Positions 643-33,307 of a stretch of 34,246 nt of DNA are shown here, in pieces. Made by a program: the position numbers and the translations under genes. Under the pieces are notes generated by a model. That model searched no databases. It was not told where the DNA came from and saw only the letters and a program-made list of their open reading frames with translations. This DNA comes from a virus (lineage: Duplodnaviria; Heunggongvirae; Uroviricota; Caudoviricetes), in the IMG/VR virus record IMGVR_UViG_2529292882_000018, positions 1-34,246 of that record; one strand, given 5' to 3'. Numbering within the stretch: the first letter of the stretch is position 1; each line of letters begins with the position of its first letter.

Positions 643-671
643 GGAGTCTCTTAAATGGGACTCCCTTTTTT
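643..671 (+). terminator. intrinsic terminator (possibly bidirectional)
   Basis: GGGAGTC...GACTCCC hairpin followed by TTTTTT; T-run overlaps the stop codon of the converging minus-strand gene. Confidence 0.6.
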
Positions 672-1611
672 ATTGGCAGTAAGAAAAGTTAGTACCGTAC
701 ATTTCATCATGAAGCATTGCAGCATTGCGTTTCTGTTCTTCTTCCTCATCTTCTACATCACTAGAAAAATGAGATTTGCCCTTAAAAGAACGAAGTAATT
801 GCAGTGCAGCCATCGGATCACGCATCACATCGATTTTCACTTCTACTTCATCATTTGCGGCCTCATCAGCCGCGTTTTCAACTACTGCCACCGGAGCAAC
901 TTCTTTAGCTTTCAGTTCTTCAATCTCAGCTTTCTGTGCTTCGATAATCTGGTCTTTTTCTTCCAGTGCAGCTTTCAGTTCTGCGATCTGTGCTTCCAGT
1001 GCAGCAAAGCGATCTTCAACAACCGGAGAAACAGCATTCACCTGTGCTTCCAGTTCCAGAAATGCTTCGCAAGATTCAATACGTTCTTTCTCTTCACCTT
1101 CATAAGCAACCAGTTCTACAACTTCTTTTTCGGTAGCGTGGCTGTTAAAGAATACAGCAAAGTAAGGATTGCCGGATTTAGTGAAGTTCAGTTTAGCTTT
1201 TCCGGTAACTTCTTTACGACGACCGAAGGTGATCTGGCAATCAGAGGTATCCTGAAAATCCATGTTAGGAGCGGAAACGATAGCAGTATCACCAGCAATA
1301 ACCAGGTGGAACAGTTCAGAAGAGTTCTTAACGGTAAAAGTAACGATGTGGTCTACTGCAACGTCTTTAGCAGGTTTAACGCGGTCGATTGCTTTACGAA
1401 TGCCGTTAGGCAGTTTACCGTCAACACCAAAGCCAGCCGCGATCAGTGCTTCACGATGTGCTTTAAAGCCAGCGAAAGCGGATTTCTGCTGTGCAAAGGA
1501 AACATGAGCAACAACTTTCGGCTGAATCTTCTTGTTTGCTTCGGTGCCAAATTTGATAACTGCTTTAGCGTTGGTTACTTCGTTAGTGAAAAAGTTAGCG
1601 GAAAATAACAT
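670..1611 (-). CDS. hypothetical protein with central coiled-coil and acidic C-terminal tail
   Basis: 313-aa ORF, ATG with GGAG RBS; heptad-like EAQ/ELK-rich central segment, DVEDEEEE acidic tail; no family recognised by eye. Confidence 0.55.
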   Translation of the reverse strand: MLFSANFFTNEVTNAKAVIKFGTEANKKIQPKVVAHVSFAQQKSAFAGFKAHREALIAAGFGVDGKLPNGIRKAIDRVKPAKDVAVDHIVTFTVKNSSELFHLVIAGDTAIVSAPNMDFQDTSDCQITFGRRKEVTGKAKLNFTKSGNPYFAVFFNSHATEKEVVELVAYEGEEKERIESCEAFLELEAQVNAVSPVVEDRFAALEAQIAELKAALEEKDQIIEAQKAEIEELKAKEVAPVAVVENAADEAANDEVEVKIDVMRDPMAALQLLRSFKGKSHFSSDVEDEEEEQKRNAAMLHDEMYGTNFSYCQ

Positions 1612-1654
1612 TATAAATACTCCGTGGAAAGTTAGTTTTAATTGTTCATTTCAA

Positions 1655-1692
1655 GCCTCCTTTGCTGCAACAAGGGAGGCTTTTTCTTTTTT
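1655..1692 (+). terminator. intrinsic terminator oriented for + strand
   Basis: GCCTCC...GGAGGC hairpin followed by TTTTTCTTTTTT; sits between two minus-strand genes. Confidence 0.55.
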
Positions 1693-1724
1693 AAAGCCAT
1701 CATATAATTCTCAGTGAAAGGTTA

Positions 1725-1907
1725 TTACCACACCTCTGCGGTAATCTTTACTTTAATGTCATACTTCTTTAAGAGTTTGTGGAAGGTTGATTGATCAATA
1801 CCTTCACCTTTAAACCATTCACCCATCACTACATCAGGTGTCAGTTCAAAATAACGCTTTGCCATTTCTAAAACGATTTCACGAGTGAACTTAACAGGTC
1901 GTGCCAT
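1725..1907 (-). CDS. small putative HTH DNA-binding protein
   Basis: 60-aa ORF with AGGAGG RBS; shares RP..F ... GI..STF..LKKYDIK pattern with the protein at 5281-5514 (paralogs). Confidence 0.5.
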   Translation of the reverse strand: MARPVKFTREIVLEMAKRYFELTPDVVMGEWFKGEGIDQSTFHKLLKKYDIKVKITAEVW

Positions 1908-2426
1908 CTTAAATCCTCCTAAATCTGGATTAATGATTTCTTAAAAAAGAGCGTTAACCGCTCACTATTATTTATATGGGGATTGTATTTTATTTTTCAA
2001 CCCCTCACATTTATCTCTTATATATGTATTTATAACAGAGATATGTTAAAATGTTATTCAGATGTTATCAGACGTGTTAAATGTGTTAAACCGCAGCACG
2101 AATTGCTAAAGAGAAGAACACGAATTAACCAAATTGATGTTTATTCAATCAATTTAGAAAATTGCATAGCACTTTTTGCTAAAGCGGTGAGCATTAATTG
2201 AGCTATGAATTGTAAAGATTTGTTACAAGATTTTCTCTCAGATCCAAATCTTCACAAACATATAACAATTTAACACGATGATAACAATAGGAAGGAAAAT
2301 CGGTAAATTTTCACTTTCAATACAAATATTATACCACATTTTTTCTCGAATTGTCAAGTATAGCACCAAACCTACATAGTGTCAAGAAAGGACTTTCAAA
2401 CCTACACTAGCCCTACACTATGAAAA

Positions 2427-2612
2427 TTGCCCCTGAATTTTGCCCCTGAACCAAAATCCCCTAGATTTCACTATCCCATTTTTGCCCCTGAAACCTACTA
2501 TTTTTGCCCCTGAAATTCTGGGAAACAGTGATTTTGCCCCTCATTTTTGCCCCTGAAATGCCAATAATTGCCCCTGAAAATCTAATTTTTGCCCCTGAAA
2601 TTTGCCCCCGAA
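2427..2612. repeat. array of nine direct 11-bp repeats TTGCCCCTGAA (seven exact, two one-base variants)
   Basis: Copies start at 2427, 2440, 2482, 2504, 2534(variant), 2547, 2568, 2589, 2602(variant); spacing 13-42 bp; inverted variant copy at 2655-2665; same 11-mer forms the left arm of the terminator at 5125. Confidence 0.85.
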
Positions 2613-2813
2613 AAGGATTGGTAAGAAAAACTCTTTATAAAACATTGACTTAGTGAGGGGCAAAAACGGGGAATCGGGCGTGCATAGATATTATATGACA
2701 CATTCGCTACGCTCATGTGTAAAACCAAAAACAACAAATAACCAAAAAGATATTAGGAGGGCGTAGCCCGACTGCGCGAAGCGCTAACCAATTACTTCTA
2801 GTAACACTAATTT

Positions 2814-3036
2814 AAACTAGATGATACTAGATGGTCTTAGAAGGAATTAACTAGTTTGCTCGCTCGCTTCGCTCACTCTCAAACGTCTGCGACGCCACTG
2901 CGTGGCATCGAGAATCACTTCTGAAAGGATTTTCTTGAAAGGGATTTTAAACTAGTTACTAACTGATTCTAGAAAGATAGTAATAATCACTTTGAAGATA
3001 ATAGTAGTTAACTGGTTACTAGATGATTCTAGATCA
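2814..3036. repeat. three copies of a ~20-27 bp CTAG-rich element (core ACTAG-TGAT-CTAGA)
   Basis: Copies at about 2814-2844, 2949-2976 and 3009-3036; eight CTAG tetranucleotides within roughly 250 bp of non-coding DNA. Confidence 0.55.
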
Positions 3037-3293
3037 CTTTAATGATCATGAAAGGTATTGGTATCCCTTCGGGATTGCAACCTTCGGTTGCTAAATTGCT
3101 TCCTAATTATTATTTCTCCAAAAGAAAGATTCTTATATTCTAAAGATACTTCTTCGTTTTGATGATGATTTAATCAAAATCTATGAAGGAGGCGAAGCCG
3201 ACTGAATACCAATTCCTTTCAAATTAGACAAAAATTTCTCGTTATAAATAATAGTGAACTTACTTTGATTCACTTTTTTAGAGGATTTCCACT

Positions 3294-3746
3294 ATGATCA
3301 ATACTAAAACTCCTTTCATTCTTCTGGGTCTGAACCATGATGATAATCTGGCTATGATGCATGTTTTCGCTAATCGTGGTTATAACATCATTCGTCATTC
3401 CGAAGACTCCAATTTCTCAACTGCTTTCTATGCTCTTAAACGTAATGGTCGCCCTACGGTGATCGTAGACTGCTTTACTGATGAAGGTCGTGAACAATAC
3501 AACAACATTCCGGCAATTATTGTTCGTGATGACCTGCCGTTTGATGTTCGTGAATATGACGTTGATTTAGGCTCTTACTATGGGATCGCCGATCTTGACC
3601 AGATTATGGCTGATTACGGTAAACAACCCGCTCAGGAAGCCCCAGAACACGATGAACAAGACGAAGATGACGACGACTACACACCAATCTGTTTCTCTTC
3701 TCACGGTGGCTTCTACGGTTACGATGAAGGCTTAGATATGCTGTAA
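3294..3746 (+). CDS. acidic hypothetical protein
   Basis: 150-aa ORF; strongly acidic with C-terminal EHDEQDEDDDDY run; leader shares a 22-bp element with the gene at 30200. Confidence 0.6.
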   Translation: MINTKTPFILLGLNHDDNLAMMHVFANRGYNIIRHSEDSNFSTAFYALKRNGRPTVIVDCFTDEGREQYNNIPAIIVRDDLPFDVREYDVDLGSYYGIADLDQIMADYGKQPAQEAPEHDEQDEDDDDYTPICFSSHGGFYGYDEGLDML

Positions 3747-4199: not shown

Positions 4200-4288
4200 T
4201 AAATTTCTATTATAAATAAAATTGTTCCGGCGGTGATGCCGGAACTAGGAGGACCAAATCATTAAACCGTTTAAGGGGAATTAATACT

Positions 4289-5116: not shown

Positions 5117-5124
5117 TAATTTTT

Positions 5125-5149
5125 GCCCCTGAATTTCAGGGGCTTTTTT
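5125..5149 (+). terminator. intrinsic terminator
   Basis: GCCCCTGAA / TTCAGGGGC inverted repeat followed by TTTTTT directly after the Rha-like gene. Confidence 0.8.
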
Positions 5150-30155: not shown

Positions 30156-30199
30156 TTCTTATAAATAGTAGTGAACTTATTATTTTCGAGGACACTACT

Positions 30200-31198
30200 A
30201 TGAATACTACTTTAGCAAAGGATATCGAATTTACCACAAAAAGCAAACGTGCGACCCCTCCGGTCGAATATGAAACCAGAATCATTAAAGTTTGTCAAGT
30301 GCATGGGTGGTTATACAGTGGTTTTGTGCTTCCTGTAAAGAAACCATTCCAGAACACCAAAGTTTGCATAGAAGTTAACGGAAAGGTTAAAACGCCATGT
30401 ATTAGTCATGTTCTAACTGGTCAGTTTACTGGCAAAGATAGAGTATCACCGCCTAAGAAGAAGTTTAGATTTACCGAAGAAGAACACTTAGAAAACGCTC
30501 GCAAGTTCTACAAGCCGATAGGGTGGGATGTGTTAGGTCTGGCTGAACCTTATCAGGGTGTTGACACTAAACTAATTCTTCGTTGTAAGTGCCACGGAAA
30601 GATTCACAAGAAAGGTGATTTACACAATAACCGCAGACAAGGCGGGTTAACATGCCCTTTGGTTAGGGGTGTACTTAAATCAATTCAGAATGGTAGAAAA
30701 CAGGTTATCAGAAACAAGTTTGCACAGCGCCCTATGCACTTTTATCTAATTCGTGTTGGCGAGAAGTTTTTCAAATATGGAATTACCACTCGCAAAGATC
30801 CGATGCAACGGGTAAGAGAACACCAGAAGCACACCAGCGAGAAAATCACCTTTGAATGCTCACATTTGTTTAACATTGGATGGAAAGCTGGTGATTTAGA
30901 AATGGGGATTAAAAAGAATATTCAGGGCAAGAAAATCCCACGTAAGGTAATGAATAGCGGATTCACAGAAACGCTACCGATTAGCAAGTTGAAAGATGTT
31001 AAATCATTCATCAATGAATACATCCACACCAACCCATCTAAGCCAATGTATTTTGATGATACCAACGCAATCAATCTGAACAACTACATTAGTGATGAAG
31101 ACATAGAACGAGATTTATCGCAGTGGATGAATGCACCGTTAGCTGATTTAACACCGGAAGACTTAGAACTCGATTTAAGCCCTTTAGAGGCTCTTTAA
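30200..31198 (+). CDS. Cys/His-rich protein with GIY-YIG-like (T5orf172-like) segment
   Basis: 332 aa; FYLIRVGEKFFKYGITTR...RVREHQ resembles the GIY-YIG core; N-terminal Cys/His clusters suggest zinc binding; leader shares 22-bp element with gene at 3294. Confidence 0.5.
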   Translation: MNTTLAKDIEFTTKSKRATPPVEYETRIIKVCQVHGWLYSGFVLPVKKPFQNTKVCIEVNGKVKTPCISHVLTGQFTGKDRVSPPKKKFRFTEEEHLENARKFYKPIGWDVLGLAEPYQGVDTKLILRCKCHGKIHKKGDLHNNRRQGGLTCPLVRGVLKSIQNGRKQVIRNKFAQRPMHFYLIRVGEKFFKYGITTRKDPMQRVREHQKHTSEKITFECSHLFNIGWKAGDLEMGIKKNIQGKKIPRKVMNSGFTETLPISKLKDVKSFINEYIHTNPSKPMYFDDTNAINLNNYISDEDIERDLSQWMNAPLADLTPEDLELDLSPLEAL

Positions 31199-33262: not shown

Positions 33263-33307
33263 AGTAGAATTTCCTCTTGTTATTTGAATTACGATATATT
33301 TATATCG

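Follow-up and report, generated by a model that had tools for sequence, protein, structure and literature searches.

A composite divergent early-control region with co-varying repeats and a putative partner protein in an undescribed family of Escherichia coli prophages

The prophage and its intergenic region

The window analysed here, the whole 34,246-nucleotide (nt) stretch of IMG/VR record IMGVR_UViG_2529292882_000018, comprises most of a ~37-kb Escherichia coli prophage. Its intergenic region at positions 1908–3293 is the subject of this study. This gap is bounded by a 60-amino-acid (aa) gene on the minus strand (1907–1725) and a 150-aa gene on the plus strand (3294–3746), and it was identical to its counterpart in GCA_000261385.1. 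The prophage encodes a lambda-gpA-type large terminase, a portal and a major capsid protein. It is inserted in ycdX via a large serine recombinase, with one variant located in codB, and was present in 57–58 of 5426 complete E. coli genomes (~1%). A megablast of the window against phage records gave no match, the best match of the large terminase in the phage database was 45% identical, and the literature as searched contained nothing relevant on the family. The host element is an undescribed temperate E. coli phage family. Library scans of the whole prophage revealed no recognisable replication protein or CI-type repressor, and lenient Pfam scans of the small neighbouring proteins gave sub-threshold matches only. 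A profile search of genome contigs with the alignment of the 150-aa protein detected no relative; the species representative was without the prophage.

For comparison we assembled 38 distinct versions of the intergenic region from IMG/VR, NCBI and Logan assemblies. The initial annotation, made from the sequence of the window, had called the gap a gene-free control region of 1.4 kb, and this was borne out. The longest open reading frame (ORF) had 72 aa, started with TTG and ran antisense to the leader described below; RefSeq had no annotation within the gap; and no ORF was conserved in position or length among the 38 versions. Since these were of similar length (1169–1399 nt) and had no ORF in common, the gap is conserved as a gap. 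Plus-strand ORFs of 72 and 92 aa were rejected as not conserved, as was a small peptide at 3183 (ATGAAGGAGG...), whose frame was shifted by hairpin variants. No tRNA or tmRNA was detected in the window. Rfam 15 gave nothing at the gathering threshold across the window and, at a permissive threshold, sub-threshold chance-level matches only in 1600–3500. The gap is a composite divergent early-control hub with a repeat array, a folded leader and a cluster of small hairpins, and not one simple RNA gene. The initial annotation had missed the leftward promoters and their folded leader, as well as the association of the repeats with a 313-aa gene, the CTAG enrichment, the TATAAATA boxes and an RB49-like element.

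A repeat array that co-varies with one neighbouring gene

The array and the genes to its left consist of the following features:

2427–2611, plus strand: nine direct repeats with the core TTGCCCC(T/C)(G/C)A (TTGCCCCTGA repeats)
2654–2663, minus strand: one inverted TTGCCCCTGA repeat; the distant relative L076 likewise has an inverted copy
2371–2420, plus strand: three copies of CCTACA(C/T)(T/A)A, the type-C unit, one of them inside the spacer of the outer promoter
2716–2724, minus strand: TTTTACACA, the sole match in the window to the DnaA-box pattern TTWTNCACA
1725–1907, minus strand: 60-aa gene, the first gene of the leftward operon
670–1611, minus strand: 313-aa gene, whose product has a beta-rich N-domain, a coiled coil at ~182–236 and an acidic tail

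The repeat core matched the window 13 times against 3.0 expected, a number reached in 0 of 100 shuffles. The direct repeats start at 2427, 2440, 2482, 2504, 2534, 2547, 2568, 2589 and 2602, with spacings of 13, 42, 22, 30, 13, 21, 21 and 13 nt (type A). At the same position, other prophages of the family carried either about seven copies of CCTACACTA or 11–12 copies of (A/T)TCCCC(G/A). The spacings of type C were 13, 21, 23, 22, 22 and 11 nt, and in all three repeat types the spacing clustered near 11 and 22 nt. The flanks of the array are AT-rich; integration host factor (IHF) sites, 13-mers or GATC clustering were not found. TTTTACACA was confined to intergenic regions with type-A repeats.

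In 37 of 37 unique loci, the set over which co-variation was counted, the repeat type agreed with the gene that follows the 60-aa gene:

TTGCCCC repeats (type A): 313-aa protein, 24 of 24 unique loci
CCTACAC repeats (type C): 339-aa protein (plus an 80-aa ORF), 10 of 10 unique loci
TCCCCG repeats (type B): 337-aa plus 333-aa proteins, 3 of 3 unique loci

The 60-aa gene and the leader, which lie between the repeats and the variable gene, reassort freely: locus L051 combines the 60-aa allele of the window with a type-C pair, and L024 a 60%-identical allele with a type-A pair. Thirteen other genes were tested (small and large terminase; the 94-, 60-, 150-, 110-, 86- and 200-aa genes; Rha; integrase; the 81-, 128- and 90-aa genes), and none co-varied with the repeat type. 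Because the repeat type tracks only the allele of this one gene, strong comparative evidence points to the repeats as the binding sites of the 313-aa protein. In a distant relative whose N-domain is 55% identical, the TTTTTGCCCCT core was kept (seven direct copies and one inverted) and the 3' flank was altered.

The variable proteins share a common plan, not sequence, with a variable N-domain of ~170 aa, a coiled coil and an acidic tail. Two homologue searches with the 313-aa protein returned near-identical Escherichia proteins only, an exhaustive search of representatives returned 11 proteins with two useful full-length relatives, and tblastn against phages and plasmids gave no match. PDB sequence searches with the 313-, 339- and 200-aa proteins found nothing. 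The predicted structure of the 313-aa protein reached a predicted local distance difference test score (pLDDT) of 45 from the single sequence and a mean of 57 with a five-sequence alignment; fold searches with the latter model gave nothing significant. Most alleles of the variable protein end in -YAA, -FAA, -RAA, -KAA, -LVA or -IVA, resembling ssrA-type ClpXP tags (L010: 2128–3147 and 1870–2112, L033: 3431–4444 and 2402–3403, all on the minus strand; P0122; P0127). The 313-aa protein of the window ends in -SYCQ.

The initial annotation had also proposed a packaging hub. If the gap were a cos or pac site, the small terminase subunit would bind at the repeats, and three features recall such an arrangement: the large terminase is of the lambda gpA type, the GC-rich islands in AT-rich DNA resemble cosN, and the repeated sites resemble the R sites of cosB. 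However, the Nu1-like small terminase gene (phrog_57 match, E = 5e-13) lies 3 kb to the left, just outside the start of the window and behind a GC-rich upstream region of its own, the alleles of both terminase subunits are independent of the repeat type, and the repeat type follows a different gene, that of the 313-aa protein. The lambda arrangement, with cos just upstream of the small terminase gene and repeats specific to that protein, is thus not what was found. A packaging role for the gap is unlikely, and the reading of the repeats as small-terminase sites is improbable in the extreme. Early genes spanning ~6 kb lie between the Nu1-like gene (L031: 2153–2707) and the gene for the large terminase, and the GC-rich stretch upstream of it (L031: 1940–2060; GCAGCCCACCAGCGCGGTCGCTACGCGAC) is a candidate cos site.

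The repeats might instead act in RNA, serving the variable protein as a sponge or as a platform with many sites; HutP, TRAP and CsrA bind repeated motifs. A perfect repeat copy (TTTTTGCCCCTGAA) does form the 5' arm of an intrinsic terminator, the one that follows the Rha-like gene (5119–5146; GCCCCTGAAtttCAGGGGC followed by T6). Nevertheless, no promoter that would transcribe the array was seen, the fold match was not significant with a model of mean pLDDT 57, and clustering at ~11 and 22 nt in all three types is as expected for one face of duplex DNA. We consider action in RNA very unlikely.

Leftward promoters and a folded leader

The following features lie between the array and the 60-aa gene:

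2328–2385, minus strand: tandem sigma-70 promoters, TTGACA-17-TATACT and TTGACA-18-TGgTATAAT
1940–2322, minus strand: predicted untranslated leader RNA of ~380 nt with the conserved loop UCUUCUCUUUAG and the GCAAUUCGUGC box (2095–2117)
1978–2004, minus strand: GGGG...CCCC stem-loop between TTGAAA and TATAAAT, which has the look, in sequence, of a promoter and stem-loop cassette
1943–1963, minus strand: terminator-like hairpin (attenuator) with a GAGCG/CGCTC stem, a 5-nt loop and then T6; −8.3 kcal/mol

The promoters matched the consensus at 11 of 12 (2385–2357) and 12 of 12 positions (2357–2328), and 37 of the 38 variants had a promoter with at least 10 of 12 matches at a distance of 330–450 nt on the upstream side of the 60-aa gene. 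The minimum free energy of the leader was −103.2 kcal/mol, compared with −65.7 ± 5.2 kcal/mol in shuffles (z = −7.3). The opposite strand folded less stably (−87.5 kcal/mol), and the minus strand was the more stable one in both leader alleles; better folding of the transcribed strand is expected where G·U pairs are used.

The leader exists as two unrelated alleles. In the second one, represented by 14 distinct sequences, 98.9% of the cells in the 67 predicted pairs were paired, compared with 31–49% in a control in which the partners were slid. Many of its changes interconvert A-U and G·U pairs, and three pairs were altered on both sides, a number reached by 13 of 500 shuffles. The compensatory support for the leader structure is suggestive, not strong. 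Common to both alleles, in a different order, are a CU-rich loop with the GCAAUUCGUGC box and the GGGG...CCCC stem-loop, and nothing else. The block at 1966–2005 of the window corresponds to positions 290–329 in the intergenic regions of L024, L007 and L010, which have the other leader allele, and its GGGG...CCCC stem showed changes from A-U to G·U to G-C.

The minus-strand hairpin with a U-run noted in the initial annotation is the attenuator. Its stem (1949–1963) and T-run (1943–1948) lie ~35 nt upstream of the start codon of the 60-aa gene (1907), and in every variant the leader ended in a short hairpin and a U-run 30–40 nt ahead of the ribosome-binding site. The stem occurred as GAGCG-GUUAA-CGCUC, as AGAGC-GAAAA-GCUCU or, with G·U pairs, as GAGGGC-GAAAA-GCUCUU. 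The strong sigma-70 promoters read leftward into the folded leader, which ends at the weak terminator-like hairpin. In the proposed mechanism, read-through of this attenuator would set the expression of the 60-aa and 313-aa genes. A strong, bidirectional-looking terminator with a 12-bp stem was also present at 1653–1682, between these two genes, so they may lack strict co-expression. It accounts for a weak, sub-threshold Rfam match to L10_leader (1600–1695).

These data bear on the possibility that non-coding RNAs are the main products of the gap, with the ~380-nt leftward transcript as a free regulatory RNA and the hairpins of the right half as a second structured leader. P4 immunity RNA and lambda 6S RNA with put-type antitermination are models for such a free leader RNA. 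Like the P4 PLE/immunity RNA and lambda PR'-6S RNA-tR' modules, the leader combines a near-consensus promoter, several hundred folded untranslated nt and an intrinsic terminator just ahead of the first gene. The fold stability, the asymmetry in favour of the transcribed strand, the compensatory and wobble changes, the retention of the promoter-leader-terminator order in all variants and the conservation of the CU-rich loop between two otherwise unrelated alleles are all in its favour. Unlike those modules, the leader matched no Rfam family, of the C4 or CI type or otherwise; a search for complementary target sites was negative, the conserved loop being without an antisense target in the window; and no Q-like or N-like gene was recognisable in the prophage. 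The link between repeats and protein would also be left unexplained. Taken with the right half, considered next, RNA as the main product is unlikely.

Small hairpins and CTAG repeats in the right half

The right half of the gap contains six small GC-rich hairpins in 2750–3210, all of them C-NNN-G triloops, together with a set of CTAG-rich repeats:

2755–2784, plus strand: GC island 1, with AGGAGG, GGGC-GTA-GCCC (within 2755–2774), GACT and GCGC-GAA-GCGC (2774–2784); variants of the first hairpin are GGCC-GTA-GGCC (L076) and CGGC-GTA-GCCG (L010)
2798–3035, unstranded: CTAG-rich tandem units of ~10 bp (ACTAGATGAT and similar) at 2815–2845, 2950–2973 and 3010–3035
2886–2913, plus strand: extended hairpin with the inner stem GCCAC-TGC-GTGGC (2894–2906); −12.6 kcal/mol, z = −2.8; variants of the inner stem, with the flanks kept, are GTCCC-TAC-GGGAC (L076) and ACGCC-TAC-GGCGT (L010)
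3063–3091, plus strand: two adjacent UUC-loop hairpins with a 5-bp stem (3063–3067/3071–3075) and a 6-bp stem (3077–3082/3086–3091)
3187–3204, plus strand: GC island 2, with (A)GGAGG, the hairpin GGC-GAA-GCC and GACTG; variants, with invariant flanks, are GGGC-(TTT, TTTA, TA, TAT or GATA)-GCCC

The GC-rich islands of the initial annotation were confirmed and could be sharpened to a composite of AGGAGG, a short hairpin and GACTG. The loops of island 1 varied across the variants (GTA, TTT, TTTA and a change from GAA to GTA), and the single-stranded flanks AGGAGG and GACTGAAT were invariant. Since the stems are kept by paired changes while the flanks stay constant, selection acts on hairpin formation, be it in RNA or in DNA. 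GCGAAGC occurred eight times in the window against 3.0 expected, and three of these copies lie within the gap, which makes up 4% of the window. Mini-hairpins of the d(GCGAAGC) type have been reported in single-strand phage origins. The three GCGAAGC copies and the C-NNN-G triloops, several with GAA or GTA, resemble them, but the loops here vary freely (TTT, TAT, TTTA, TGC, TTC), and the likeness is one of sequence.

The paired hairpins at 3063–3091 had been described as UUCG tetraloops. They are present where they had been placed, but they are UUC triloops: aligned to the C(UUCG)G register, hairpin 1 would have a C·A and hairpin 2 a C·U mismatch at its second pair. The pair folded at −12.4 kcal/mol, compared with −6.9 ± 2.3 kcal/mol in shuffles (z = −2.3). 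It was invariant in 28 of 36 variants, had UUC changed to UGC in L042 and L045, gave way to different hairpins in L052 and L076, and was deleted in L018. RNAalifold on 18 variants gave no covariation support for the domain 3043–3233 (term +0.38). A 16-bp long-range helix (3049–3064/3206–3221) is not claimed, as one variant compensates and four do not. In the natural variant L018 (IMGVR_UViG_2534682338_000010), 229 nt equivalent to 2975–3203 of the window are missing, and with them island 2, the RB49-like element and the two UUC hairpins, so that none of these is required for the prophage, be it viable or defective, to persist.

With respect to non-coding RNA as the main product, the covarying hairpin stems of the right half count in favour, as does the plus-strand change of UUC to UGC that two variants show. 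Against it, the right domain as a whole had no covariation support and is deleted in L018, no promoter was found for a rightward RNA across 2650–3240, and C-G-closed triloops, including those with GAA and GTA loops, are equally typical of DNA hairpins. The structured non-coding RNA suggested in the initial annotation is thus supported for the left third of the gap, with its stable leader, but not for the hairpins it singled out, which lack a covariation term. Comparison across related phages, which it had proposed as a check, was likewise suggestive for the leader, with its three compensatory pairs, and unsupportive for the UUC hairpins. These hairpins are the least informative part of the region, and the features first put in the foreground are secondary.

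CTAG occurred eight times in 235 nt, compared with 49 times in the 34,246 nt of the window (about 24-fold enrichment), and the CTAG-rich units are probably a second protein-binding array, judging from their sequence. The right half also has a conserved 250-nt segment, at the end of which an invariant TATAAATA box precedes the rightward operon of 150-aa, 110-aa and Rha-like genes. The right half (2750–3290) may serve this operon as a protein-binding or leader segment.

Motifs in common with T4-type phages

Three features connect the gap with T4-type phages:

1969–1976, minus strand: TATAAATA box beside the 60-aa gene, invariant in 36 variants, with variable flanks
3243–3293, plus strand: TATAAATA box (3243–3250, invariant in 36 variants), hairpin AGTGAA/TTCACT with a T-run, and ribosome-binding site of the 150-aa gene
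3138–3179, plus strand: 41-nt RB49-like element with the inverted repeat TTTTGAT-N9-ATCAAAA

The window contained seven copies of TATAAATA against 2.6 expected. Five of them lie 33–71 nt upstream of start codons in the orientation of the gene (1969–1976 and 33297–33304 on the minus strand; 3243–3250, 4211–4218 and 30160–30167 on the plus strand), and a stem-loop is usually found ahead of the ribosome-binding site. Three copies were extended as TATAAATA(A/G)TAGTGA, and the octamer was also present in the distant relatives L075 and L076. At the level of the motif the boxes resemble T4-type late promoters, with TATAAATA at −10 and no properly spaced −35 box. A gene for a gp55/gp33-type factor was not seen in the prophage.

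Window positions 3138–3178 were 90% identical to a repeat that is present about four times per genome in 59 of 59 Krischvirus (RB49-like) records, and the element was found nowhere else in the phage database or IMG/VR outside Krischvirus and this prophage family. In RB49, copies lie at 497–522 and 633–673 of L054. One RB49 intergenic region has two tandem copies of the 41-nt element, and it also has GCGAAGC and a TTGCTCGCT...GCTCGCTTC stretch resembling 2857–2880 of the window. The PeSL of RB49-type phages joins a near-consensus TTGACA-N17-TATAAT promoter to a Gn-loop-Cn stem-loop (PMC2839356, PMC4122927). The 41-nt element is not a PeSL as so defined, because it lacks a consensus promoter both in the window and in RB49. 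The part of the gap that does look like a PeSL is the GGGG...CCCC stem-loop between −35-like and −10-like boxes (1978–2004), which is not the shared element. The likeness to RB49 and phi1 thus extends to the 41 nt in common with an RB49-type repeat and to the order of box, stem-loop and ribosome-binding site ahead of several genes, but the host element is temperate, packages its DNA in a lambda-like manner and is not a T4-type phage. With accessory and early genes placed behind boxes of the T4-late motif, and with the RB49-like element in the gap, the prophage could conceivably sense, exploit or interfere with T4-type phages.

In some members of the family a cargo block with a defence-like look lies beside the integrase and consists of a GIY-YIG nuclease, a DEAD/DEAH helicase and a small gene (L039: 12398–14445 and 11056–12231; L079: 12245–15634). 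At the cargo position, the window has a different, endonuclease-like gene (30200–31198, phrog_681).

Possible function of the array and its putative partner protein

We tentatively favour the hypothesis that the array and the 313-aa protein are a replication origin and its initiator. The proposal is based on the order of repeats, promoter and gene, the spacing of ~11 and 22 bp, the inverted copy and the DnaA-box-like site, which together form the layout of an iteron replicon, and it is preferred because no other origin or initiator is visible in the phage. The array has the direct repeats of iteron origins, at least three in one orientation at about helical spacing. The 313-aa protein would then act as initiator at the array, which may feed back on the adjacent promoters. 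The origin suggested in the initial annotation is accordingly plausible on this layout and on the co-variation of repeats and protein.

As in the iteron replicons P1 oriR/repA, F oriS/repE, R6K gamma/pir and pSC101, the repeats have the same orientation, lie one to two helical turns apart and are placed directly upstream of the promoter of the cognate gene, here with an extra inverted copy and a DnaA-box-like site nearby. As in lambda O/ori, the repeat sequence and the protein allele switch together between relatives. On the other hand, the 313-aa protein is neither a winged-helix Rep nor an O protein, and no relative of it was detected outside Escherichia prophages. A 380-nt folded leader and the 60-aa gene separate the promoter from the 313-aa gene, the repeat core is just 10–13 bp long, and the replication role is deduced here, unlike in those replicons.

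Several further points count against an origin. The role is drawn from comparison, and both binding and replication are deduced from it. The DnaA-box pattern is missing from type-B and type-C regions, and the 13- and 30-nt spacings are off strict helical phase. The 313-aa protein falls outside the known initiator families (Rep_3/RepA winged helix, lambda O, TrfA and similar), and searches by sequence and by fold gave no significant relative. Neither a helicase loader nor any further replication partner could be identified in the prophage, and the module was not found in 72,556 plasmid records. Lastly, a DNA-binding domain, a coiled coil and a protease-sensitive-looking tail would fit a Mu-type repressor equally well.

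A close rival is therefore that the region is an immunity region, in which the variable 313-, 337- or 339-aa protein is a repressor or master regulator, the array its operators and the repeat types heteroimmune types; we regard this main alternative as possible but doubtful. Phage Mu has about nine repeats in 200 bp between divergent promoters (c repressor, operators O1–O3), and its repressor combines DNA binding by the N-terminal domain with a coiled coil and with a tail at the C terminus through which degradation by ClpXP is controlled. The gap resembles this arrangement in having many repeats within ~200 bp between divergent early operons, and the 313-aa protein in its domain plan with a protease-sensitive-looking tail. 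However, no sequence or fold similarity turned up in the searches made with the 313-aa protein; the repeats here have one orientation and lie off any mapped promoter; and the phage does not transpose.

Within the family, too, the evidence is divided. No CI-like repressor is recognisable anywhere in the prophage, the swapping of specificities is exactly the mosaic that immunity modules would show, the variable protein has a predicted coiled coil, and several of its alleles end in the ssrA-type degron look of -AA, -LVA or -IVA. Three type-C units overlap the leftward promoter in the window. By contrast, the type-A repeats are 42–280 bp away from the leftward −35 box, on its upstream side, and no promoter could be recognised that they overlap, none being found inside the array on either strand. 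Nine to twenty copies in one orientation would be unusual among operators, and a strong, constitutive-looking promoter with an attenuator is atypical of a repressor-maintenance promoter. Double prophages of the family occurred in two complete genomes, NZ_CP157110.1 (at 2806354 and 3413984) and NZ_CP063332.1. Of these double carriers, UTME-9 has a type-A and a type-C prophage. The other, BS74R-D, holds two copies of the type-A 313-aa gene; the place of its second copy was sought and not located. The first counts for an immunity region and the second against it, and together they do not decide between the readings.

We retain the origin and initiator pair as the preferred hypothesis. Bolder is the proposal that the variable protein, sequence-specific, protease-labile and with a coiled coil, represents a new class that, together with its swappable arrays, acts as origin/initiator or master switch, gated by the ~380-nt attenuator RNA, in a prophage wired to superinfecting T4-type phages. 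In this full form it is a long shot.

Implications for the phage family

The hub is of a known general kind, with divergent early promoters, an attenuated leader and a repeat array with a cognate protein, built from parts that have no known relatives. The early genes, origin and repressor of this prophage escape current libraries, although it is present in about 1% of complete E. coli genomes. The perfect match of repeat type and gene names a protein together with its likely site. Whether as origin and initiator or as repressor and operator, the pair would define a family new to DNA recognition, with four or more specificities occurring in nature. The attenuated, folded leader is a candidate RNA switch, and the sequence in common with RB49-like phages suggests that temperate and virulent coliphages exchange sequence or interact.

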